A stretch of DNA of 64,000 nt from Desulfobacterales bacterium (lineage in GTDB: Bacteria > Desulfobacterota > Desulfobacteria > Desulfobacterales > JAAELO01). The notes beneath the pieces are model-generated. The model was not told the origin of the DNA and made no database searches. It saw only the letters and a list, made by a program, of their open reading frames with translations. Each line of letters begins with the position of its first letter. Positions within the stretch are counted from its first letter, which is position 1. Location: assembly GCA_024226555.1 (NCBI GenBank), contig JAAELO010000457.1, forward strand, positions 70,701-134,700. The letters are read 5' to 3'. The translations under genes were made by a program, and so were the position numbers. Positions 1-64,000 of this stretch are shown one piece after another.

Positions 1-955
1 CTTTATCCCGGTTGAGTAGTAATGCACTGAAATGAGACATTGTTTCATATTCAGGAAGAGGCCTTCCATCTTTAGCTATTTTTTTACATCTTACATGACA
101 GCCTTGACAACCTGCATGTTTAACACCGAATTCTTTCTGATATGAAAAAGCATTCATTTTTTCAGGATCTTCAAAAGATGTTTCCTTAAAATTCATGGTT
201 GGAATCATCCTTCTTGAACTTATAAGATCAAAAAGTGCTCCCGTTCCAAATTTTGAGATTCCTGCATCTCCCATCAAAACAGGTGAAGCCGAAACCAGCC
301 TTAGGATATCTTCCCTTGCTTTTTTTAACTCAGTTTTATCGGCAATACTGGTCTTTTTACTTCCTTTTACAGCCAGATATTTTAAGTTCTTAATTCCACA
401 AATAAACCCAAGTCCGTTTCTACCAGCTGCATAGTGACCATCTATCATAATGTTTGAATAGAGAACACCATTAAAAGCTGATGGACCAACAGCAGCAACG
501 GAACCTTGCCATGAGAGTTTCTTTAATACTTCAGATATTTTTAGGTCTCTGGCTTCATCACAGGCCTTGAAACTAACTTTTTCATCAATTATTTCAATTC
601 CACACAGTTCATCGCTTTTACCAGTTATAACAATTCCATCAAAACCAGTTTTTTTTAGCTCACTACCAAATTTACCCCCAACAGATGTATCTCCAATTGT
701 TCCGGTTAAAGGTGAAATTGAAGTTATATTTATTCTTCCCGGAGATGGAGATGTTGTGCCAACTAATGGACCGGTGAAAAAAAGAATAGCCATCCCATCT
801 GAATCTATCTCTTTTGTTGCACACTTTCTAAGATAATATCCAGAGAGCCCTTTTCCACCTATAAATTTATAATAAAGTTCATGATCGGGTCTTTCAATTG
901 AAGACTCTTTTTTTGTCAGATTTATATGAAGAATTTTACCATGCCAGCCGTTCAT
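1..955 (-). CDS. Aldehyde:ferredoxin oxidoreductase family protein, N-terminal part (runs off the window)
   Basis: Manual translation from ATG at 955 gives MNGWHGKILHINLT...FIGGKGL...FFTGPLVGT...SPLTGTIGDTSVGGKFGSELKKTGFDGIVITGK...AAGRNGLG...KNLK, typical AOR N-domain motifs. AAGGA RBS upstream. Confidence 0.9.
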   Translation of the reverse strand, partial: MNGWHGKILHINLTKKESSIERPDHELYYKFIGGKGLSGYYLRKCATKEIDSDGMAILFFTGPLVGTTSPSPGRINITSISPLTGTIGDTSVGGKFGSELKKTGFDGIVITGKSDELCGIEIIDEKVSFKACDEARDLKISEVLKKLSWQGSVAAVGPSAFNGVLYSNIMIDGHYAAGRNGLGFICGIKNLKYLAVKGSKKTSIADKTELKKAREDILRLVSASPVLMGDAGISKFGTGALFDLISSRRMIPTMNFKETSFEDPEKMNAFSYQKEFGVKHAGCQGCHVRCKKIAKDGRPLPEYETMSHFSALLLNRDK

Positions 956-5610: not shown

Positions 5611-5919
5611 TCACTTCTCCTCTCTGGTATTTTGTTTAATCTGATAAAGATAAACCCTGTTGGGATCGTCCATATCAAGATCGTCACTGTTTTTACAACC
5701 CATTGAAACAAGTCGTTTTTTTACATCAGATAGAACCTGGGGAGTACATTGATTGCTTAATATCCAGTTCTTTGCAATCATATCAACTCTGTGAACTGTC
5801 AAGAGGTTATGCTTGGGGTCAGCTGTTAATCCAACATACCATTCTTCAAATTCTCCTTTAATGTGTCTTGTAAAATCTTCAGCACCGTCAGTAAAGTAAG
5901 GATCGATATCAATATACAT
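5611..5919 (-). CDS. Small hypothetical protein with GIY-YIG-like motif; paralog of 63071-63340
   Basis: WYVGLTADPKH..L..H.VD...WILS shared with the 63071 ORF; AGGAGG RBS. Confidence 0.7.
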   Translation of the reverse strand: MYIDIDPYFTDGAEDFTRHIKGEFEEWYVGLTADPKHNLLTVHRVDMIAKNWILSNQCTPQVLSDVKKRLVSMGCKNSDDLDMDDPNRVYLYQIKQNTREEK

Positions 5920-13890: not shown

Positions 13891-13920
13891 AATATTTAGA
13901 ATTCCTCAAAAATGAATACA

Positions 13921-14050
13921 GGGAACCTCTAAAAAATAGAAATTTTATTGAAATACAAGGATGAGAAATAAATAACGAAGCGATTTTACAACAGTTTTTT
14001 ATTTCGAATAACACAGTATTTCGGTCAAAGATCAGTTTTTAGAGGTTCTC
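13921..14050. mobile_element. 130-bp MITE copy, TACA target duplication
   Basis: GGGAACCTCTAAAAA...TTTTTAGAGGTTCTC flanked by the non-palindromic direct repeat TACA. Confidence 0.88.
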
Positions 14051-25324: not shown

Positions 25325-25818
25325 ATGAATAAAATATTAACTATCATATTATTAACAATTTTTTTAACAAGTTGCTCAACTGTTTTTTCTAAAAAAGAAG
25401 TTTTAAAACTTTAAGTGAAGCCACTTCTTTTATTCAAAAATCTCTAAAAGACCGTAATTATACAGCATTGGATAGTTCGCTTTTAGTAAAAGAGAATTCG
25501 AATTATCTTTAGGGAATCTCTAATAACTGATCTTTTTACGAAACACAGCGTTATAACAAAAATAAAACTGTAGTAAAATCAACCCGTTGTTTTTTGTTAT
25601 GCCTTGTTTTTCATCAAAAAATCTAATTATTAGAGGTTCCCTTTATATACTCTGATTTAGCTAAATATAATCTTGTTGAAATATACAAAGATGAAGTTTT
25701 CAACGAAGAATTTAAACGGCATACGTTAGGTGGACATTTGGGTAAATTAGGTTGTATTCATATTGATTTCTTAAAAAAAGAGAAGTGGCATATTGAAAAG
25801 ATTTGGAGGTGTAAATAA
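25325..25818 (+). pseudogene. Lipoprotein gene disrupted by a MITE and frameshifts
   Basis: MNKILTIILLTIFLTSC lipobox; reading continues after a frameshift up to the MITE; a 58-codon open frame after the MITE ends ...WHIEKIWRCK*. Confidence 0.6.
25512..25641. mobile_element. 130-bp MITE copy, TTTA target duplication
   Basis: GGGAATCTCTAATAA...TTATTAGAGGTTCCC flanked by the direct repeat TTTA. Confidence 0.9.
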
Positions 25819-31542: not shown

Positions 31543-31858
31543 GGGAATCTCAAAAACTACCTTTTATCTGAATTACTTATGTTGTTAAAAACAAAACAAC
31601 AGAGTATACGAGAAAAAAATAACTGTGAACTTTATTAAGGGAATCTCTAATAACCTCTCTTTTGGCGAAAAACTATGTTATTTCCAAAAAAAACTGTAAT
31701 AAAATCGGCTCGTTAATTTTTGAAATGCCTTGTATTTCATCCAAAATTCTAATTATTAGAGATTCCCTTAAATTAAACCTTTTTTATAAACGAATCGGCT
31801 CGTTATATTTTTCTCAAGCCTTGTAATTAAACCAAAAATATTATTTTTAAAGGTTCCC
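31543..31858. mobile_element. Outer degenerate MITE containing a nested copy
   Basis: GGGAATCTCAAAAAC ... AATCGGCTCGTTA...GCCTTGT...TTTTTAAAGGTTCCC. Confidence 0.7.
31639..31767. mobile_element. Intact 129-bp MITE nested in another MITE, TTAA target duplication
   Basis: Perfect 15-bp TIRs, TTAA on both sides. Confidence 0.9.
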
Positions 31859-41646: not shown

Positions 41647-41774
41647 GGGAAGCTCTAATAACCTCTCTTTTGGCGAAATACATTGTTATTTCAAAAAAAA
41701 CTGTAATAAAATCGGCTCGTTATTTTTTTAAATGCCTTGTATTTCATCTAAAATTCTAATTATTAGAGGTTACC
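41647..41774. mobile_element. MITE copy
   Basis: Near-identical to 31639-31767 and to the reverse of 63329-63457. Confidence 0.88.
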
Positions 41775-41783
41775 TATAGGTAT

Positions 41784-54819: not shown

Positions 54820-55935
54820 TTAAACGATATTTTTGATCTCATTAATCGAAAGGGGTCTTTCCTTTAAAGCTGACATATCTTTAATATCTTTAATAACTCT
54901 TTTCAAATCTTCTTTGTCAAAATCAATACCATTTCTTTTAAGAACCTTCTTAACAAGATTTTTCCCACATAAAACATTTACATAAAACTCTTCATCTTCT
55001 GAAAGACCAAAACTATTATCACCATGGGTTCCTGCCACATGGGTTTTTGAAGAAGAACCAAAAAAAGGTGTGTTATAATTCAGTATAGAAAAACCTGTTT
55101 TTTTAAAGCAAATTTCATTAACATATTCATAGTACTCTCTAAACAGTTCTTTATTTTCTATTGAAAGATCAATTTTAAATCCTTTTTCCTTTAAAACTTT
55201 TCCCACTGTAAACAGATCTCCAATTCCGTTTCGCTCTCCAATTCCCAAAGCAGAAACTTCAATTATACTCCCACCGTTTAAAACCCCCATAATTGTATTT
55301 GCAGAAGCAAATCCCATATCATTATGACAATGAATTCCAAGTTTAGTCTTATTTTCAACCACTTTCGCAATTGATTTTACTTTTTCTTCAATAATATCGG
55401 GTGAAAGTATTCCCGATGTATCTGGCAGGGATATTATATCAACCATAAGGTCTGATGATAAAAATTGAGCGCTATCAGAAAGAAGACACGGTTCGGTTTT
55501 TCCAATATCCAAAAGGCTTATTCCAATACAGCTTTTTTCGGTATTACTTCTTATATATTCAATTGTCTCTTTTAAAGATTTGAAAATTTCTATGGGGTCT
55601 CTTTTTTTTAGAGCATCTTCAGTTATGATTGAATGGAGATGAAAATCATGAACATTAACCTTAACCATAAATTCAACATCCTGTACAATTGATCTGCAAA
55701 GTCCTGCAACTCTAATATTATAACCTTTTCTTACTATGTGCTTTGAAAGTTCTTCTATGGCTTTTTCTTCACTTCTATGTGCAGGAGGATACCCTGCCTG
55801 GGATATGTTAACTTTTAACTTTTCCTGAAAATCCAGAATCATCTTTCTTTCAGGAATTGAGAAAACTAAACCTCTGAACTGCATGCCTTCTCTAATTGTT
55901 TGATCAACAACCGTTATCTCTCTGCTTATATTCAT
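54820..55935 (-). CDS. DRE-TIM metallolyase (isopropylmalate/homocitrate synthase-like, catalytic domain only)
   Basis: DQTIREGMQ, LPDTSG, HCHNDMG.A.AN, GIGERNG, H.AG.H. Confidence 0.85.
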   Translation of the reverse strand: MNISREITVVDQTIREGMQFRGLVFSIPERKMILDFQEKLKVNISQAGYPPAHRSEEKAIEELSKHIVRKGYNIRVAGLCRSIVQDVEFMVKVNVHDFHLHSIITEDALKKRDPIEIFKSLKETIEYIRSNTEKSCIGISLLDIGKTEPCLLSDSAQFLSSDLMVDIISLPDTSGILSPDIIEEKVKSIAKVVENKTKLGIHCHNDMGFASANTIMGVLNGGSIIEVSALGIGERNGIGDLFTVGKVLKEKGFKIDLSIENKELFREYYEYVNEICFKKTGFSILNYNTPFFGSSSKTHVAGTHGDNSFGLSEDEEFYVNVLCGKNLVKKVLKRNGIDFDKEDLKRVIKDIKDMSALKERPLSINEIKNIV

Positions 55936-56033
55936 TAAATATTCTTCTTTAAAATGGAAATATTATAAAAACAAAAGTTAAGTTGTAAAAAGGTAGCTTT
56001 ATTATACTTATTTATCAACAGATTTTTAATTAA

Positions 56034-56220
56034 ATGAATCTCTAATTAATTAGAAATTTTTGATGAAATTCAGATTATTAAAAAATTTAGTTTTATAAAA
56101 CCTCTGCATGAAAAAAGAACGAGATGGTTCGGTTATAAAACGCTTTAATTTATAAACAATATAACAGTTTTTTTAGGATATAACGAAGTATTTCGGAAAA
56201 AGAGCTGTTATTAGATTTCC
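56034..56220. mobile_element. Degenerate MITE with two palindromic inserts
   Basis: GAATCTCTAATTAATTAGAAA...CTGTTATTAGATTTCC. Confidence 0.65.
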
Positions 56221-56303
56221 TTAAGATTCTTGTAGCCCGAAAGTGTTATGATATGTTATTAACCTTTTGACAATGTTGTTAACAAAACCCTAAAGAGGTC
56301 TAT

Positions 56304-57671
56304 TTGGCTAAGAAAAAAGATAAAACAGTATTCTACTGTACAGACTGTGGTGGAGAGTTTCCTAAATGGATGGGTAAATGCCCCGGTTGTGGAAGTTGGG
56401 ATACCCTTGTTGAAGAAAAAAAACATACAACTTATACAAATCAAAATAGCTCTTTTTCTAAAGAACGATCAAAACCTGTTCAGATAAGTGAAATCAAAGT
56501 TTGCGAAAAAAACAGACTGAAAACTGATATTGTAGAATTTGACAGGGTTCTTGGTGGTGGACTTGTGGATGGGAGTCTGGTTCTTATAGGAGGGGACCCA
56601 GGTATTGGAAAGTCCACTCTTATGTTACAGGCACTCCATAAATTGTCCTCTAAAAACATTAAAGTTCTATATGTTTCAGGAGAGGAGTCACCAGTTCAGA
56701 TAAAACTCAGAAGTGAAAGACTGCCAGAGGAGTCTACAGATCTTCTTGTGGTTTCTGAGATCAATCTTGAAGCTATTTTGAATCTTGCAGAGACAGAAAA
56801 GCCTGGTGTTTTAGTTGTGGATTCTATTCAAACAGTTTTTAGCGGAGAGATTGGTTCTGCTCCAGGAAGTGTAAGTCAGGTTAGGGAAGCCACGATGCGC
56901 TTAATGGTAATGGCCAAAAAAACAGGGATTCCAACCCTTATTGTAGGTCATGTTACTAAAGATGGTGCTATCGCCGGACCAAAAATCATGGAACACATGG
57001 TTGATACAGTACTTTATTTTGAGGGCGATAGAAATCATATATTCAGAATACTCAGGGCCGTAAAAAACAGATTTGGCTCAACTAATGAAATTGGTGTTTT
57101 TGAAATGAGAGGAACAGGACTTTTTGAAATATCGAATCCTTCAGAGATTTTTCTTTCTGAACGTCCTGTCAATGTACCAGGTTCAATAGTAACAGCCTGT
57201 ATGGAGGGGACAAGGCCTATTCTTGTGGAAATCCAGGGCCTTGCAAGCAGCTCAAGCCTCGGAACTCCTAGAAGAACAGTTATTGGTGTGGATCATAACA
57301 GAGTATCTCTTCTTGTCGCCGTTTTAGAGAAAAAAGTGGGAATGAACCTTGCCGGCCTTGATATATTTATGAATGTTGCCGGAGGTGTTAAAATAAATGA
57401 GCCTGCTGCGGATTTGGGAATTATTACAGCCATAGCTTCAAGCTTTTTAAATAAATCTATTCCAGAGGGTATGGTTATAATAGGTGAAGTAGGACTTACC
57501 GGTGAAGTCAGAGCTGTGAGTCACATAGAAAAAAGAGTTCAGGAGATAGAGAAGATGGGATTTTCAAAATGTGTAATTCCAAAAGTTTCTCTAAAGAACC
57601 TGACTGGTAAATATAAACTTGAGATTCTAACAATAGATACTCTTGCAGAAGCATTGGAAATAATATTTTAG
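56304..57671 (+). CDS. radA: DNA repair protein RadA/Sms
   Basis: C4 zinc finger, GGDPGIGKST, KNRFG, GEVGLTGE. Confidence 0.97.
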   Translation: MAKKKDKTVFYCTDCGGEFPKWMGKCPGCGSWDTLVEEKKHTTYTNQNSSFSKERSKPVQISEIKVCEKNRLKTDIVEFDRVLGGGLVDGSLVLIGGDPGIGKSTLMLQALHKLSSKNIKVLYVSGEESPVQIKLRSERLPEESTDLLVVSEINLEAILNLAETEKPGVLVVDSIQTVFSGEIGSAPGSVSQVREATMRLMVMAKKTGIPTLIVGHVTKDGAIAGPKIMEHMVDTVLYFEGDRNHIFRILRAVKNRFGSTNEIGVFEMRGTGLFEISNPSEIFLSERPVNVPGSIVTACMEGTRPILVEIQGLASSSSLGTPRRTVIGVDHNRVSLLVAVLEKKVGMNLAGLDIFMNVAGGVKINEPAADLGIITAIASSFLNKSIPEGMVIIGEVGLTGEVRAVSHIEKRVQEIEKMGFSKCVIPKVSLKNLTGKYKLEILTIDTLAEALEIIF

Positions 57672-57673
57672 AT

Positions 57674-58279
57674 ATGGTTAAAAAAAAGAAAAACAAAAAA
57701 GGCAATTGGGAAGATCATTATACAAGGAAAGCTAAAAAAGATAACTTTCCGGCAAGATCTGTTTATAAGCTTCAGGAGATTCAGAAGAAATTTAAAATTA
57801 TAAAGAAAGGTTACAAGATATTAGATCTTGGTTGTTCTCCCGGATCATGGTTAAAATATGCTGCAGAGCTTACAACACTTTCCGGCCTTGCATATGGGAT
57901 AGATTTGAAAGAGGTGACAGAAAAAATGCCTGATCATGCAAAAACATTTGTATGTGATATTCTGGATTATGATAACGACCTTAATAAAAAAATAGGTACA
58001 GATTTTGATATTATATTAAGCGATATGGCTCCTTCAACAACAGGAAGAAAAGATATAGATGCCGCAAGATCCTACAATTTATGTGAAATGGCTCTAACCG
58101 TTTCAAATGAAAGATTGAAAGCGGGTGGGCATTTTGTTTGTAAAATTTTTCAGGGTCGAGAGTTCGAAGAGTTTGTAATTCTTGTGAAAAAATGCTTTAA
58201 GAGTTATAAAATTTTTAAACCTGAAAGTTGTAGAAAACAAAGTAAGGAAATTTATATAATAGGATTAGATAAGATATAA
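57674..58279 (+). CDS. rlmE: 23S rRNA methyltransferase RlmE
   Basis: ARSVYKL.EI, DLGCSPGSW, SDMAP, KP.S.RK.S.EIY. Confidence 0.95.
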   Translation: MVKKKKNKKGNWEDHYTRKAKKDNFPARSVYKLQEIQKKFKIIKKGYKILDLGCSPGSWLKYAAELTTLSGLAYGIDLKEVTEKMPDHAKTFVCDILDYDNDLNKKIGTDFDIILSDMAPSTTGRKDIDAARSYNLCEMALTVSNERLKAGGHFVCKIFQGREFEEFVILVKKCFKSYKIFKPESCRKQSKEIYIIGLDKI

Positions 58280-58291
58280 CGGAGGTAAGTA

Positions 58292-59038
58292 ATGTCAGGT
58301 CATAGTAAATGGTCCTCTATAAAGCATAAGAAGGGTGCGGCTGACGTAAAGCGCGGTAAGATTTTTACAAAGCTTATTAAAGAAGTTACTATTGCAGCAA
58401 GAATGGGTGGTGGAGACCCTGATGCAAATCCAAGATTGAGAACTGCCATAGCTGCGGCAAAGGCTGAAAATATGCCAAAGGATAACGTTACCCGCGCTAT
58501 AAAAAAAGGAACCGGAGAACTTGAAGGTGTAGATTACGAGGAAATTACATATGAAGGATATGGTCCTGGTGGAGCTGCAGTAATCGTTCAATCATTAACA
58601 GACAACAAAAACAGAGCTGTTGCAGATATCAGATACCTTTTTAGTAAAGCTAATGGTAACCTTGGAGCAAATGGTTGCGTTGCCTGGATGTTTGATAAAA
58701 AAGGAATTTTTATTGTCGATAAAGAATCTATTGATGAAGATTCCCTTATGGAAGTAGCCATTGATGCTGGTGCTGAAGATGTTAAAGATGAAGGGGATAC
58801 CTTTGAAGTTTTAACAGAACCTGAAGATTTCGAACCAGTTCGTGAAGCCCTTGAAAAGGCAGAAATTAAATTCCACGATGCTGAAGTTACTTTGATTCCT
58901 CAAAACCCTGTTAGTCTTAAAGGAAAAGAAGCTGAAGGTATGTTTAAGTTTATGATTGCACTTGATGATTGTGATGATGTTCAAAATTTCTATACAAATG
59001 CAGATATACCAGAAGAAATTATGAACGATTTAGCTTAA
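58292..59038 (+). CDS. yebC: YebC/PmpR family protein
   Basis: [26 protein letters not shown]. Confidence 0.96.
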
Positions 59039-59063
59039 AATTTGATGGTTTTGTTCAAATATA

Positions 59064-59108
59064 AAAAACTCCTGTAAAAAATAAATTACAGGAGTTTTTC
59101 TTTTTTTT
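59064..59108. terminator. Bidirectional terminator
   Basis: AAAAACTCCTGTAA...TTACAGGAGTTTTT between convergent genes. Confidence 0.8.
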
Positions 59109-61549
59109 TATACTGTGGTTCTTCTTGTGGACCCTCTTTTTTCATCTGTCATATAAATATTCTTTGCACGTCTTTCTTTTCCATTTCTTTTTTCAAGGGC
59201 AAGTTTCAAAACGTCACTCATTCTTTCTACGAAATGAATATTCAGTGCTTTTAAAACTTTTTTAGGAATTTCATCCAGATCATTCTGGTTTGTTTTCGGC
59301 ATTATTATAACTTTAATACCACTTCTATGGGCTGCGAGAATCTTTTCCTTAACTCCTCCTACCGGAAGAACCTGCCCCCTTAAAGTTATTTCACCAGTCA
59401 TTGCAAGTTTTTTAATAACTTTTCTGTTAGTAATTAAGGATGTTAGTGCTGTTAACATTGTAACCCCAGCTGATGGTCCATCTTTTGGTATTGCCCCCTG
59501 GGGTACATGAACATGAATATCATGTTTTTTGAAATAGTCTTCAGGAATATCAAGTTCTATTGCGTGGGTTCGGATAAAAGAAAGAGCTGTTTGAACAGAT
59601 TCTTTCATCACACTTCCAAGTTGCCCGGTTAATAATAACCCCTGATTACCAGCCATAGCTGTCGCTTCAATAAAAAGAAGATCTCCTCCTGCAGGGGTCC
59701 AGGCAAGACCCATTACAACGCCAGGTATCACTATACGTTCACTCATTTCAGGTATTGCTTTAACAGGTCCAAGAAATTTTGCCACATTCATAACCTTAAT
59801 TGAGACTGATTCTTTAAGACCTTCAGCTATTTTACTGGCAACTCCTCTGCAAATAGCTGCTATTTCACGTTCAAGATTTCTCAGGCCTGCCTCTCGTGTA
59901 TATCCTGATATAATATGTTTAATAGCACCTGTTGTTATGGCAATCTGATTAGCCATTAATCCATGCGCCCTTCTCTGTCTTGGGATAAGATATTTTTTTG
60001 TTATTTTGACCTTTTCATCCTCTGTGTATCCAAGAAGTTCAATAACCTCCATTCTGTCTCTAAGAGCTGAGGGAATAGTATGTAGAACGTTTGCAGTAGT
60101 CAGAAACATTACCTCAGACAGATCAAAGGGAACGTCAAGATAATGATCAGAAAAAGAAAAATTTTGTTCAGGATCAAGGACTTCAAGAAGAGCTGACGAT
60201 GGGTCTCCCTGATATGAGTTACCAACTTTATCTATCTCATCTAAAACAAAAACAGGGTTTTTTGTTTCAGCTCTCCGTATGCCCTGAATTATTCTTCCAG
60301 GAAGAGCTCCAACATATGTTCTTCTGTGGCCTCTTATCTCTGCTTCATCCCGAACACCACCTAATGCGAGTCTTACATATTCTCTGCCGAGTGATTTTGC
60401 AATCGATTTTCCAAGTGATGTTTTTCCTGTTCCAGGAGGACCTGAAAAACAGAGTATCGGACCTTTTGAGTCTGGTTTAAGTTTTCTAACAGCAAGATAC
60501 TCAATAATTCGTTTCTTCGCCTTATCCAGACCAAAATGGTCATCATCCAGTATTTTTTTCGCATCCTTGATATTGTGTTTATCCAGGGTTTTTTTATCCC
60601 ATGGAAGAGTTGTAATCCAGTCAAGATATGTTGATGCAACTGTATATTCAGAAGATGAAGAAGGCATTCTTGATAATCTCTTAAGCTCTCTTTCAGCTTC
60701 TTTTTCAGCCTCTTTAGGAAGTTTCATCTTTGCAAGACGTTCTCTGTATTCATCAACATCGGATTCGGCATCTTCTGCTTCACCAAGTTCTTCACGAATA
60801 GCTTTAAGCTGTTCTCTAAGATAGTACTCTCTTTGTTTATTTCCAATGTCTTCCTGAACCTGACTTTGTATTTTTGTACCCATCTCAAGAACTTCAAGTT
60901 GATAATTAATCAATTTTGTAACTTTCTTTAGTCTTTTTTTTGGGTTGAAAGTTTGCAGAATTTCCTGTTTTTCCTCACAGGAACAATTAATGGTAGATGC
61001 TATCATATCTGCCAAAATCCCAGGTTCTTCAATAGTATTTGCCATTCCAGCAATTTCATCAGGAAGGGTTGGGGATAATGTTACAAGTTTGTCATATAAT
61101 TTTAATATGTTAGACATTAAAGCTTTTGTTTCTTTATCTGTCTTCACAGAGTCTTCAACCATAGTCATTTCTGTACTAAAGTAATGACTATCTGCTACAT
61201 AGTTTTCAATTTTAAAACGACTAATACCCTGAAGCATTATTTGAGTCTCTCCAGTATCAGCAGTTTCCACCTTAATGATAATAGCAACAGTCCCCACATC
61301 GTAAAGGTCTTTTACAGTATATGTATCTACAAGTTCGGATTCTTTGGCAACAAGAACGCCAAGGATACCATCTGCGTCTAAAACTTCCTTTATAAGTGCC
61401 TTTGATTCTTCTTTAACAACAAGAAGTGGCAAAACCATTTTAGGAAATAAAACCACATCGTAGAGGGGTAATATAGGGATTTTTGAAGGTACTCTTTTAG
61501 GATCAACATCAATAAACTGGTGGGTTTTCATATCACCAAATTTTGTCAT
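59108..61549 (-). CDS. lon: ATP-dependent protease La
   Basis: GPPGTGKTS, GHRRTYVGA, LDEIDK, PKDGPSAG, GGVKEK. Confidence 0.97.
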   Translation of the reverse strand: MTKFGDMKTHQFIDVDPKRVPSKIPILPLYDVVLFPKMVLPLLVVKEESKALIKEVLDADGILGVLVAKESELVDTYTVKDLYDVGTVAIIIKVETADTGETQIMLQGISRFKIENYVADSHYFSTEMTMVEDSVKTDKETKALMSNILKLYDKLVTLSPTLPDEIAGMANTIEEPGILADMIASTINCSCEEKQEILQTFNPKKRLKKVTKLINYQLEVLEMGTKIQSQVQEDIGNKQREYYLREQLKAIREELGEAEDAESDVDEYRERLAKMKLPKEAEKEAERELKRLSRMPSSSSEYTVASTYLDWITTLPWDKKTLDKHNIKDAKKILDDDHFGLDKAKKRIIEYLAVRKLKPDSKGPILCFSGPPGTGKTSLGKSIAKSLGREYVRLALGGVRDEAEIRGHRRTYVGALPGRIIQGIRRAETKNPVFVLDEIDKVGNSYQGDPSSALLEVLDPEQNFSFSDHYLDVPFDLSEVMFLTTANVLHTIPSALRDRMEVIELLGYTEDEKVKITKKYLIPRQRRAHGLMANQIAITTGAIKHIISGYTREAGLRNLEREIAAICRGVASKIAEGLKESVSIKVMNVAKFLGPVKAIPEMSERIVIPGVVMGLAWTPAGGDLLFIEATAMAGNQGLLLTGQLGSVMKESVQTALSFIRTHAIELDIPEDYFKKHDIHVHVPQGAIPKDGPSAGVTMLTALTSLITNRKVIKKLAMTGEITLRGQVLPVGGVKEKILAAHRSGIKVIIMPKTNQNDLDEIPKKVLKALNIHFVERMSDVLKLALEKRNGKERRAKNIYMTDEKRGSTRRTTV

Positions 61550-61798
61550 TGGATTAACCTCCGCTTTTCAAGGAATTCGCTAAATTATATGAACCTTAAC
61601 TTTTTTAGGTATAAATTGTAAACTGATCAGCAAAAATAATGTAAAATTTAATCAATCTTAAATAACATCTAAATTTGATTCTTCCGTGAGGAATAGAAAC
61701 AATTTGACTTTAGTAGGAAGAAATTACTGATTTGGAATGAAATAATCAGTTTTTATAAATTAACATTTTGTATTTATTTTGTAAAGAAAAGATAATAT

Positions 61799-61855
61799 GG
61801 AACTTCTAATAATTAGAATTTTGATTGGAATATAAGGATGAGAAAAAATAACGAA
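61799..61855. mobile_element. Truncated MITE (one end)
   Basis: GGAACTTCTAATAATTAGAATTTTG...AAGGATGAGAAAAAATAACGA matches the start of the 13921 copy. Confidence 0.65.
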
Positions 61856-62512
61856 CCCTTCTGGTAAATTCCTTACTATCTGTCATAAGCGTTTTCAGTT
61901 CGCTTCTTCAATGTAATCAGTTTTGTATGTCCGGTAGAGCGAAGCGAAAGCAGTTTTGATTCGACCTTGTTCAAATGTAATCGAATATTCCGATCAGGGA
62001 TCTCATTAAATATCAAAAACATGACAAAAGAAAAAAAACTATTGTAAACTAATCTATAACTCCTCTGTTGGATTCACCACTGATTGTCATTTCTGAGATG
62101 ATTTGGATTATTTTTATTTCCAAATTTGAGTCAGGAATCCATTAAGGCTTTACAATTAATGAAATGCTATCATCAAATCGGAAACTTACCTTCAAAAAAT
62201 CTTAGCAAACAAAAGGAGAGACCCTCTGCGAGAGATAAATCTAAAATAAAAATGTTTATATTTTTATGCGCCTTTTTTGAAAAATTTGATAAACAGATTA
62301 TTAAAAAATGATTGTTAATGAAAAGCAAATTTTCAAAAAAAACCATATCCAAATGAATATGTTAAAAATAAATTAATTTTTCTCTTGATATTTGTTTAAT
62401 GTTGCGGTTATTGTTTTACTGGTTGTATTAATTGTATTCGGCGAGCCAAAATGGAAGCGGTCACTTCCAAATTGACTCTGAACAGAAATCTTCTCGAACA
62501 AGGAGAAAACTA

Positions 62513-62704
62513 ATGCCTGTAATCTTTTTTACAGAAACCTATCCATTCCGTCAACGCCTCTTTCACACGCCGGGGCAGTTTTTTCACTCAAACACTATTA
62601 AATCAAGACAAAAAACACACTTGGAAACTGTTACAAATGCACCTCTGGTTTGTAAATCTGCCCTTTTTTCTGGTCTGTTTCTACTTGATTGTTGGGTGAA
62701 TTGA
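62513..62704 (+). CDS. Putative 63-aa leader ORF within the structured region
   Basis: AGGAG RBS at 62501-62505 and ATG at 62513; no recognisable domain. Confidence 0.35.
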   Translation: MPVIFFTETYPFRQRLFHTPGQFFHSNTIKSRQKTHLETVTNAPLVCKSALFSGLFLLDCWVN

Positions 62705-62916
62705 ACTGGTTCTACATGAATCTGCTTTAGTTTTTTTGCTATGGGGAAACTTAAGCTTTTTATGTCTACACAAAACAGTCATTTTTTTTGTGTAAATAAA
62801 AATTATTTCCAGGATTTTCTAAGAAATAAATAGTAACAGAAGATTTTCTTCAGTTCAGAACCAGTTTTGCGCGTGAAAGAGAGTACACTTAAACTACATA
62901 TGAAAGAGGCGTTGAC
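62550..62916 (+). ncRNA. Candidate large structured RNA (Y-shaped, two long arms)
   Basis: 16-bp perfect inverted repeat 62550-62565/62901-62916 enclosing nested inverted repeats in two arms; strand inferred from the flanking promoter and terminator. Confidence 0.5.
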
Positions 62917-62955
62917 AGGTATGGGAGAAATTGCCCCCTCCCATACCTTTTTTTT
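62917..62955 (+). terminator. Rho-independent terminator
   Basis: AGGTATGGGAG...CTCCCATACCT followed by T-tract. Confidence 0.85.
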
Positions 62956-63070
62956 CTAATAATTGTTTCTTTGTAGGAGTTTAACTACTTACCGCTTTAT
63001 TTTAAATTAATGATACTTGTAGGCTACTTGCCTGCTCCCGTTATTTGCTAAGAATAGGAGACAACTTGAA

Positions 63071-63340
63071 ATGTATGTTTATACAAAACCTGACCTGACT
63101 GCCAATATAAGTTCATTCATAAGCTGTATGAGAGTATTCGGAGGAAGTAATTACCAGTGGTATGTTGGCCTTACAAATGACCCTAAACACAGCTTTCTGA
63201 ATATACACAATGTGGATATTCAGGAAATTGGATGGATTCTTAGCGAAAGATCGAAAGTCCACCAACTTAACTTTATTAAAAGCTACCTCACTCAAATCGA
63301 CTGCCAAAACAATCCTGAACTGGATATAGGGAACCTCTAA
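63071..63340 (+). pseudogene. Paralog of 5611-5919, truncated at the C-terminus by a MITE
   Basis: WYVGLTNDPKH...WILS; the last residues GNL* are read from the MITE TIR. Confidence 0.7.
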
Positions 63341-63457
63341 TAATTAAAATTTTGGATAAAATACAAGGCATTTCAAAAAATAACGAGCCGATTTTATTAC
63401 AGATCTTTTTGGAAATAACAATGTATTTCGCCAAAAGAGAGGTTATTAGAGATTCCC
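63329..63457. mobile_element. MITE copy with non-matching flanks
   Basis: GGGAACCTCTAATAA...TTATTAGAGATTCCC; left flank TATA, right flank ACTA. Confidence 0.9.
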
Positions 63458-63601
63458 ACTAGTGTTACTGAAAAAAATAGAGCTATTTTTTATTGTCCTG
63501 GTTGTGGAAAACCACTAAATAAAGAACTAAATTGTATTAATTGTAATAAATCTATAAGTGATTTAGAGTATCAACTAATTGAATTTCATCCTCATTCTTA
63601 A
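63458..63601 (+). pseudogene. 3' fragment of a zinc-ribbon protein gene
   Basis: TSVTEKNRAIFYCPGCGKPLNKELNCINCNKSISDLEYQLIEFHPHS*, no start codon. Confidence 0.55.
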
Positions 63602-63622
63602 TAAATTGAGGAAAACAAAAAA

Positions 63623-63684
63623 AGATAACGAATAAGGATAGATCGTGTGAGTAAGCGAACCACGATCTTATCTGGTAGTTGGAC
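63623..63684 (-). other. attC-like recombination site
   Basis: Minus strand: GTCCAAC-5 bp-GATAAGAT-stem/loop-ATCTATC-7 bp-GTTATCT (R''/L''/L'/R' layout with an extra base in L''). Confidence 0.6.
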
Positions 63685-63867
63685 AAGCCATCTTTATATA
63701 GGAAAATATATTTTTGAGATCAGGGGTGGCAAGTAAGACTTTTTAAGTTTATCTTTTGTTTAAACGCAGTATTCCATCAACTTTTTTACAGGTTCAAATT
63801 ACTCATATTTTTTCATAAAGATAAATCCTCCTAAATATAATTATACAAGCTATTGCCAGTGAGTTTA

Positions 63868-64000
63868 TTAACCGGATTTACATCTGTTCAAAAGTACTCC
63901 AACTATGATCATATCAGCATTACAATTACTACATTTGAACACAGGTCTTGGACGTTTTATTTCTATAATGTGAACATGAAGTATTAACTGAACAAGGTAT
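63868..64000 (-). mobile_element. C-terminus of a probable IS91-family transposase (runs off the window)
   Basis: YLVQLILHVHIIEIKRPRPVFKCSNCNADMIIVG...* with a C-terminal CxxC..M; TTTCCTATA oriIS-like motif downstream at 63697-63705. Confidence 0.55.

Follow-up and report, generated by a model that had tools for sequence, protein, structure and literature searches.

Within a 64,000-nucleotide stretch of the genome of a Desulfobacterales bacterium (GenBank assembly GCA_024226555.1, contig JAAELO010000457.1, positions 70,701 to 134,700; the whole stretch is referred to below as the window), a folded region close to the right-hand end was found to be a conserved plus-strand RNA structure with its own promoter and intrinsic terminator. 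This region, which we call the unit, is very probably the structured mRNA of a real small open reading frame (ORF), and it may be controlled in a manner that resembles type I toxin-antitoxin systems, namely by an antisense RNA together with a clamp between the 5′ and 3′ parts of the mRNA; we assign to this type I-like reading a probability of about 0.4. The first-pass annotation of the window had described the region as an unannotated non-coding RNA (ncRNA) and had treated it as a single locus. The region is not simply such an RNA, nor is it a single locus, as the 5′ third of the region, which includes the left arm of its closing stem and all of its arm 1, is a conserved small ORF with a Shine-Dalgarno sequence, and the region belongs to a family of approximately 50 copies.

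The genome comprises 7.69 Mb in 905 contigs, and the unit of the window matches many places in it. A profile of the 5′ 160 nt (nhmmer) yielded 54 matches in the genome, 48 of which are complete 5′ modules. The copies are 67-96% identical, with only five pairs at least 88% alike, and their flanks are unrelated except in a few pairs, even the most similar pairs sharing short or low-identity flank matches. Since the flanks differ in this way, the copies are true dispersed paralogs and not assembly duplicates; the small number of close pairs and the barely shared flanks together exclude assembly redundancy as the source of the copies. DNA read depth in the run containing the window is 350-510 over the core of the unit versus 7-14 in the flanks, and many copies sit at contig ends. 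Even if its function turns out to differ from the one proposed here, the family accounts for some of the repeats of this genome and for some of the breaks in its assembly.

On the evidence of comparison among the copies, the small ORF is kept open by selection. A GGAG motif lies 7 nt upstream of the ATG, and both the Shine-Dalgarno sequence and the start codon are present in all 48 copies. In 44 of 45 copies the frame runs on without a stop for 43 codons or more, versus 4 of 45 in each of the other frames, and the same holds for the variable codons 28-43 (open in 44 of 45 copies, versus 6 and 7 of 45 for the other two frames); the sole exception, C575, has a stop after 36 codons. In the second subfamily, 19 of 20 copies have the ATG at 96, 108 or 117 nt from a landmark in the variable part; the insertions and deletions there are therefore multiples of three, and an in-frame gap of 3 nt separates the subfamilies (PGQ versus GQ). 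The ratio of nonsynonymous to synonymous change (pN/pS), calculated over 29 pairs that are not independent, is 0.59 in the ORF frame versus 1.03 and 0.81 in the others. A shift of 1 nt after codon 28 occurs in three copies (C154, C386 and C47), whose frames stay open, which counts against strong constraint on the protein. The encoded peptides have 43-71 residues (median 56 in 45 copies; 63 in the window) and are basic, with a median isoelectric point of 9.7, a median net charge of +5 and a mean grand average of hydropathy (GRAVY) of -0.15. Their N-terminus is conserved and their C-terminus variable, with a median of two Cys residues and a recurrent CC motif in the second subfamily. No Pfam or NCBIfam family matched the peptide at E <= 10, and no peptide family was found in PADLOC or PHROGs either. 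A candidate for a large structured ncRNA may thus conceal a conserved small ORF of a kind mostly missed by gene callers.

The copies share one order of elements: a promoter, a GC-rich hairpin flanked by GCGAG and CUCUGAACA, a hairpin holding the Shine-Dalgarno sequence, the ATG, 12 codons, a near-invariant core of 33 nt, a variable middle part, a 3′ module and a terminator. The conserved 3′ module consists of the hairpin CUGAAGA/UCUUCAG followed by ACACCAGUUUUGCGYGUGAAAGAGGCG, and the terminator loop of the copies carries YUGYCC. In other subfamilies, the Shine-Dalgarno hairpin has CUCUU/AAGAG in place of UUCUC/GAGAA. The promoter proposed in the first-pass annotation gains support from across the family, as 46 of 48 copies have a motif of the form TTGNNN-16..19-TANNNT whose spacing to the 5′ hairpin downstream of it is consistent, versus 11.3 expected from shuffles, and all of the sense -10 boxes end in T. 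With predicted ends, the mRNA is approximately 535 nt long in the window and approximately 650-700 nt in the second subfamily. Most subfamilies also have a conserved A/T-rich motif (TTTTCAAAAAATGAAT-like; approximately 62318-62345 in the window) some 50-60 nt before the -35 box, possibly an UP-like element or the binding site of a regulator. In four units of the second subfamily (L049 on C58, L057 on C631, L052 on C702 and L035 on C904), approximately 650-700 nt long, the CUGCCC-loop hairpin is followed by another complement of the core (GGCGUGAAAAAGGCGUU) and by a second hairpin resembling a terminator, so that these units have two tandem 3′ modules.

The whole predicted transcript (62421-62956, plus strand) folds with -147.7 kcal/mol, versus -113.2 +/- 5.6 kcal/mol in 100 shuffles, none of which equalled it (z -6.17). 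The central segment (62540-62925) has z -5.6 on the plus strand and -7.25 on the minus strand; its minus strand folds as well as its plus strand, and therefore folding energy alone cannot assign the strand. A scan of positions 55000-64000 on both strands with Rfam cmscan at E <= 1, covering families that include 13 antitoxin RNA families, OLE, GOLLD, ROOL, HEARO and group I and II introns, gave three chance matches (E 0.5-0.75) and none within 62385-62955. Two of the checks that had been suggested with the first-pass annotation, folding against shuffles and an Rfam scan, came out in favour of a real structure outside the Rfam families, and every stem that it named could be located at its place.

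Covariation, the third such check, was assessed on an alignment of 13 paralogs (alignment A2) with an RNAalifold consensus, using slid partners and 500 shuffles as controls. In the consensus, 94.3% of cells are paired, versus 29-50% with slid partners, and eight pairs are changed on both sides; none of the 500 shuffles reached that number, a significance that is overstated because the paralogs are related. The family-wide closing helix connects the core, in the early coding region, to a partner in the 3′ untranslated region (UTR), here called P1: CCUCUUUCAC-AC-GCCGGGGC pairs with GUUUUG-CG-C-GUGAAAGAGG of the 3′ module through 17 pairs, with 96.4% of cells paired across the 13 paralogs. Compensatory changes include alignment columns 131/479 (AU in 10 copies, GC in two and CG in one) and 124/486 (CG in 12 and AU in one), and further cases are seen in C433, where CUCAUUCAC occurs with GUGAAUGAG, and in C77, where CUCAAUUGC occurs with GUGAUUGAG. 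Four consecutive G.U pairs in this helix fit the plus strand, since the other strand would have A.C there. A weaker control was provided by RNAduplex: in no more than 13 of 42 copies did the true 27-nt core do better than every one of its 100 shuffled versions (mean z -2.5). No synonymous change was found in the core across 48 copies, and the conservation of its nucleotides exceeds what the peptide needs.

The intrinsic terminator, already noted as strong in the first-pass annotation, is confirmed by its 11-bp stem and U8 run, and 10 of its 11 pairs show changes on both sides in the alignment. Its loop (UUGCCCC) is complementary to GGGGCAG at the 3′ end of the core, of which GGGCAG is invariant. 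In 29 of 42 copies a hairpin loop contains a YTGYCC motif, with a T run after it in most cases, and five more copies have the motif in a weaker hairpin; C-to-U variants in the loop keep the pairing as G.U. As both partners are almost invariant, this pseudoknot-like loop contact rests on conservation and not on covariation. Through the core-P1 helix and the complementary terminator loop, the early coding region of the completed mRNA can thus be clamped to the 3′ end of the same molecule.

The closing stem of 16 bp named in the first-pass annotation is present in the window as a perfect inverted repeat (62550-62565 and 62901-62916), and it proved to be a subgroup-specific addition to the older core-P1 helix. 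Its right arm (P2) arises from an insertion of approximately 30 nt that repeats TGAAAGAG (also given as UGAAAGAG) and is found only in the subgroup of the window. In the minimum free energy (MFE) fold, P2 stacks on the core-P1 helix and leaves the insertion as an internal loop. In the alignment, this stem is 69.7% paired without any change on both sides, its single pairs being kept in 3-12 of the 13 copies. A clamp that overlaps the terminator stem was not seen outside this subgroup. An antiterminator role of the extended closing stem was considered and dropped, as it appears only if the 3′ half of the terminator is left out, and the fold of the whole transcript forms the terminator.

Both arms enclosed by the closing helix were also evaluated. 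Within arm 1, which lies inside the ORF, helices 3 and 4 are 96.6% and 91.3% paired and have G.U variants that fit the plus strand only, and AATCAAG/CTTGATT is 69% paired with three pairs changed on both sides. Of the 13 aligned copies, 8 lack most of arm 2. Of its closure (62704-62713 and 62857-62866; AACTGGTTCT and AGAACCAGTT), the first seven pairs (closing AACUGG/CCAGUU) are 88.8% paired and the remainder 39%, while the conserved hairpin of this arm (helix 5) is 93.3% paired.

The hairpin at the 5′ end was assigned to the same RNA in the first-pass annotation; it is present at the place given there, but it is a hairpin of the minus strand. When this element is folded by itself, the minus strand gives the more stable structure in 47 of 48 copies (mean -19.95 versus -13.19 kcal/mol), with 88 G.U pairs versus 7 on the plus strand, and its stem pairs covary (helix 1). 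C.A mismatches on the plus strand alternate with U-A, changes that are neutral only on the minus strand. These sequence features point to an antisense RNA. Upstream of the hairpin with respect to that strand, a promoter-like motif is conserved: TTGACG with a spacer of 17 nt occurs in 48 of 48 copies and TAAAAN in 46 of 48, and the sequence of the spacer varies. The features of the unit and of the adjacent gene are listed in Table 1.

Table 1. Features of the unit and of the gene next to it (window coordinates).
Feature	Position	Strand	Basis
Sense promoter candidate, TTGATA-18-TATTGT	62385..62414	+	Consensus scan and conserved position
5′ hairpin, candidate stem-loop of an antisense RNA; complement in 5′ UTR of the mRNA	62443..62478	-	Stability, G.U pairs, covariation
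Small hairpin UUCUC/GAGAA holding the Shine-Dalgarno GGAG (62502-62505)	62491..62507	+	MFE fold
Conserved small ORF, 63 codons and stop (MPVIFFTETYPFRQRLFHTPGQFF...)	62513..62704	+	Frame kept open, pN/pS, Shine-Dalgarno
Promoter-like motif TTGACG-17 nt-TAAAAA, codons 5-14	62526..62554	-	Conservation
Core, near-invariant ORF segment (codons 12-22) pairing with 3′ UTR	62546..62578	+	Conservation
Arm 1, within the ORF: UUCACUCAA/UUGGGUGAA as outer helix, UUACAAA/UUUGUAA as inner hairpin	62583..62700	+	Covariation
Arm 2, length varying between copies; conserved hairpin at approximately 62837-62853	62704..62866	+	Alignment
P1, family-wide 3′ partner of the core (GUUUUGCGCGUGAAAGAG)	62864..62881	+	17 pairs, 96.4% paired, compensatory changes
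P2, 16-nt closing-stem arm of the first-pass annotation	62901..62916	+	Perfect complement of 62550-62565; subgroup-specific
Intrinsic terminator	62917..62956	+	11-bp stem (62917-62927/62938-62948) and U8
Gene of the ~100-aa protein family, cut to 89 aa here	63071..63340	+	27 tblastn matches in the genome

These features can be combined into a model of RNA-based control. A short cis-antisense RNA of approximately 80-100 nt would be made from the minus strand, possibly starting at the TTGACG-17-TAAAAN motif within codons 5-14; it would cross the start codon and the Shine-Dalgarno sequence and end in the strong hairpin. The antisense RNA and the 5′-3′ clamp would then block synthesis of the small basic peptide except under special conditions, and the clamp, a helix of approximately 27 bp, would be a plausible substrate of RNase III. 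In the sections consulted of two articles on type I systems, such modules are described as having a small ORF, an overlapping antisense RNA of 60-200 nt, long-distance pairing between the 5′ and 3′ parts and stem-loops at both ends, and in hok/Sok and aapA1/IsoA1 the full-length mRNA is described as inert, with stem-loops that kiss the antisense RNA and RNase III clearing the duplex (PMC8594479, PMC5416894). The length of the small ORF (43-71 residues, median 56) agrees with the approximately 20-60 residues given for type I systems (PMC8594479).

Several observations weigh against this type I-like reading. The predicted mRNA (approximately 535 nt, and approximately 700 nt in the other subfamily) exceeds the 150-400 nt typical of type I mRNAs, and the small hydrophobic membrane-active toxin that is usual, though not universal, among such systems is not what the unit encodes: a hydrophobic stretch of 19 residues (Kyte-Doolittle mean of at least 1.6) is found in only 3 of 45 peptides. 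With these two usual traits missing, the unit is likened to type I systems and is not filed as a member of them. The clamp covers codons 12-22 and not the Shine-Dalgarno sequence, which sits in a local hairpin of 5 bp in the MFE fold. With regard to the antisense RNA, the minus-strand -10 box never ends in T, no canonical TTGNNN-16..19-TANNNT motif is found at a conserved position of the minus strand in the 48 copies, and no U run follows the minus-strand hairpin; the bases concerned also code for invariant residues and take part in the clamp, and the invariance of TTGACG may reflect the peptide (R13-Q14) or RNA pairing and not a promoter. With regard to the peptide, the pN/pS value indicates mild constraint only, the AlphaFold model is not confident (predicted local distance difference test, pLDDT, 57), and a protein language model barely recognises the sequence (best ESM Atlas score 0.76). 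Approximately fifty copies of a toxin gene would also be unusual, and the 14 of 48 units that are followed by the same gene suggest a link that a plain type I module leaves unexplained.

Comparison with individual systems shows where the unit agrees with and departs from known designs. The hok/Sok systems compared here are those of plasmid R1 and of enterobacterial chromosomes. According to the sections consulted of PMC8594479, they share with the unit an mRNA whose 3′ part is long and which carries a small ORF, a 5′ region that pairs with the 3′ end of the same mRNA and several chromosomal copies. The unit differs from them in showing no sequence or Rfam likeness, in its basic, non-hydrophobic peptide, in having no mok-like overlapping leader ORF, in a clamp that lies on codons 12-22 and not at the extreme 5′ end, in its longer mRNA and in its approximately 50 copies. 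The aapA1/IsoA1 system of Helicobacter pylori, as far as it is described in the consulted part of PMC5416894, has multiple copies per genome, as the unit has, and resembles the control proposed for the unit in that the full-length mRNA is kept inactive by its own fold; there, stem-loops kiss an antisense RNA encoded opposite the 5′ part of the ORF, and RNase III acts on the duplex. AapA1 is a toxic peptide of 30 residues, whereas the ORF of the unit has 43-71 codons. In addition, long-distance pairing hides the Shine-Dalgarno sequence of aapA1, whereas in the unit a local hairpin holds that sequence and the long-range helix lies downstream of it, and the pairing between the terminator loop and the coding region is not part of the aapA1 model as given in that portion of the article (PMC5416894).

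If the type I-like reading is correct, the unit would represent an RNA-controlled small-protein module from a little-studied uncultured lineage, unusual for its basic, non-membrane peptide and for a clamp that uses both the terminator loop and a 3′ UTR helix; its approximately fifty diverged copies would then constitute a natural mutagenesis series for the way in which mRNA folding gates translation. We consider it rather doubtful that the family goes further and forms an undescribed class of amplified self-clamping mRNA elements, in which a basic peptide gene would be held by the 3′ UTR helix and the terminator-loop pseudoknot and opposed by a cis-antisense RNA, with a third of the copies coupled to a novel protein of approximately 100 residues; such a class would be a new RNA-regulated selfish or defence-type module that has spread to approximately 50 copies within a single uncultured lineage and has no homology to the toxin-antitoxin families known so far.

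With respect to distribution, a DNA-pattern search of genome contigs returned four stretches, one of which is a true member (L009, in an unclassified metagenome-assembled genome) and three of which are chance matches; the genome with L009 has one copy of the unit in 2.5 Mb. The same search gave five stretches in metagenome contigs, all by chance, and no match in viral contigs. No real match was found by DNA in 60 genomes of the same order (one match of 29 nt at E 9.5e-4), nor by the peptide profile in 400 genomes of the class (one match inside a frame of 1440 residues). Among billions of predicted proteins, only eight or nine relatives of the peptide were recovered, one of them labelled 'Deltaproteobacteria bacterium', and three of the eight matches in one search were long proteins with repeated short matches, which were taken as spurious. 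Judged from these searches, the unit family appears almost confined to this lineage. In the literature searched, we found no paper containing the 18-nt core, its complement or the peptide motif. The unit is thus a family that has no database family and almost no relatives, and its design varies on RNA-gated small-ORF modules already described, from which it is set apart by the contact of the terminator loop, the basic peptide, the number of copies and the coupling to a novel protein.

That protein, of approximately 100 residues (99-116 in full-length relatives), is encoded just downstream of the unit. The association between the RNA and a downstream protein that was suggested in the first-pass annotation is borne out: 17 of the 27 gene copies lie just downstream of a unit, on the same strand and at a distance of 0.1-1.0 kb, and the order of unit, terminator and gene recurs in a second genome, at L009. 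Among these 17, 14 have a full 5′ module within 1.4 kb, two (C184 and C254) have only the 3′ part before the contig ends, and the last is C380. Seven gene copies have no unit upstream, and three are too near to contig ends to tell. Seen from the other side, the gene accompanies 14 of the 48 full units and is never found with the second subfamily. The protein family is equally lineage-restricted, with 25 proteins.

One alternative is that the unit serves the downstream protein as a leader or an RNA partner, either as a translation-sensing attenuator that acts through terminator read-through or as a neutralising RNA of the type III kind. The recurrent gene order described above favours this idea, and, as inferred from the fold, ribosomes on codons 12-22 would free the 3′ partner beside the terminator. 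In the consulted part of PMC3401426, type III loci (toxIN, cptIN and tenpIN) are likewise described as consisting of a promoter, a structured RNA, a terminator that limits read-through and stands between the RNA and the gene, and a small protein gene. Unlike these loci, the RNA of the unit carries a conserved ORF, most units have no protein gene, the protein matches no known toxin family, and no tandem array is present, as Tandem Repeats Finder (minimum score 30) gave no rows on 62300-63100. Moreover, at 34 of the 48 full units no co-oriented gene recurs downstream, the second subfamily as a body lacks the gene and yet keeps the ORF, the clamp and the terminator, some gene copies lack an upstream unit, and an overlap of the clamp with the terminator stem was not seen outside the subgroup of the window; we regard this explanation as rather unlikely. 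The view of the first-pass annotation, that the function resides in a large structured RNA itself (non-coding or dual-function) and that the ORF is a regulatory device or secondary, appears unlikely to us, although the structured 3′ part is longer than the ORF and conserved with covariation, the core is conserved beyond the need of the peptide, two copies in which a 1-nt deletion shifts the frame remain open and the peptide is poorly recognised as a protein. It has to be set against the frame that stays open in nearly every copy, its variable part included, the in-frame indels, the lowest pN/pS in the ORF frame, the Shine-Dalgarno sequence and ATG of every copy and an arm 2 that is largely dispensable. 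The dual-function small RNAs RNAIII/hld, SgrS/SgrT and SR1/SR1P are single-copy, trans-acting regulators with known targets. They resemble the unit in that one transcript combines a small ORF with conserved structured regions that exceed it in size, but for the unit no target or trans pairing was found beyond the core of its own family.

Two other explanations both seem very unlikely. Multicopy lanthipeptide precursors are served by one maturation locus, and the peptides might similarly be precursors resembling bacteriocins or ribosomally synthesized and post-translationally modified peptides (RiPPs), with a leader of approximately 25 residues, a variable Cys-containing core and one distant maturation locus for all. 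The conserved N-terminus, the variable C-terminus with its Cys residues and CC motif and the many dispersed copies would suit such peptides; however, no NCBIfam or Pfam leader or precursor family matched at E <= 10, no recurrent modifying enzyme or transporter was found within 3-4 kb of the 48 units in the 905-contig assembly, no role would be left for the clamp, the minus-strand hairpin or the long and conserved 3′ UTR, and the nucleotides of the leader are themselves conserved, a sign of constraints on RNA or DNA. The unit might also be a selfish mobile cassette, a view compatible with the other readings, whose copy number would be due to transposition or homing, perhaps by way of the ~100-aa protein if that were a nuclease. 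Approximately 50 copies with unrelated flanks, many of them at contig ends, in a repeat-rich genome speak for such an element, and language-model likeness connects the ~100-aa protein to nuclease-containing clusters; on the other hand, the ends of the unit bear no terminal inverted repeats (the 16-bp repeat is internal and confined to one subgroup), no transposase recurs beside the units, the copies are old and divergent and have kept their ORFs, and a nuclease identity finds no support in Pfam, profile-profile or fold searches.

These searches bear on the GIY-YIG-like label that the ~100-aa protein had been given in the first-pass annotation, a label that they do not support. PF01541 matched 0 of 22 members at E <= 1, and Pfam otherwise gave sub-threshold noise; a genome-wide scan with PF01541 found five other loci, none of them from this family, and hhalign of the family against the GIY-YIG proteins of the genome itself gave a probability of 1.3% over 12 columns. 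For the structural model (pLDDT 77.6), Foldseek returned nothing at E <= 0.001, and VIA-align reached at best a Z score of 4.1, against generic two-layer alpha/beta folds; its best 50 rows contained no GIY-YIG chain. ESM Atlas gave scores of 0.96 to a cluster in which 30% of members are GIY-YIG (PF01541) and 0.95 to clusters in which T5orf172/MUG113 occurs in 14-23% of members, both of which are taken as leads only. A sequence profile search of the PDB gave no matches at E <= 10, PADLOC none, and PHROGs one at E 0.35.

The window contains a second member of this protein family, full-length at 102 residues (5614-5919, minus strand), which is 36% identical to the copy at 63071 and is not preceded by a unit within 1.5 kb. 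A conserved hairpin (GUAGGGGAGC..GCUCCC, with stem changes such as GGGAAGC/GCUUCC) was observed between the terminator and the ~100-aa gene in C592, C438, C47 and C380, and at approximately 63010-63050 of the window the same hairpin is degenerate. At three units of one subgroup, the place of the ~100-aa gene is taken by another small ORF of 110-120 residues (MDIKSQIPILSININ...), which follows the units of C407, C756 (unit at 72947) and C904 at approximately 0.2-0.4 kb.

The gene copy of the window is cut at 63325 by a repeat of 130 bp resembling a miniature inverted-repeat transposable element (MITE), and its homology to copy C184 ends at 63327. This repeat (63325-63457) has terminal inverted repeats of approximately 15 bp (GGGAAYCTCTAATAA) and further copies in the window at 1638-1724, 2231-2361, 13917-14048, 25512-25645, 31639-31768 and 41647-41778, with a partial one at 61795-61857. 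Genome-wide, 572 copies of at least 110 nt were counted on 165 contigs, with a median identity of 81%, and the read depth over the repeat is approximately 15,800 versus 7-14 nearby. Readings of the unit itself as an integron attC site, a retron or an intron were dropped, as the copies are dispersed, no integrase or reverse transcriptase lies nearby and no Rfam intron matched. At 2 of the 48 units (C58 and C431), an ORF on the opposite strand ends at the terminator of the unit, 0.5-1.4 kb downstream of its start; from its motifs, we take this ORF to resemble a transposase of the Y1 type, either associated with repetitive extragenic palindromic (REP) sequences or of the IS200 type.

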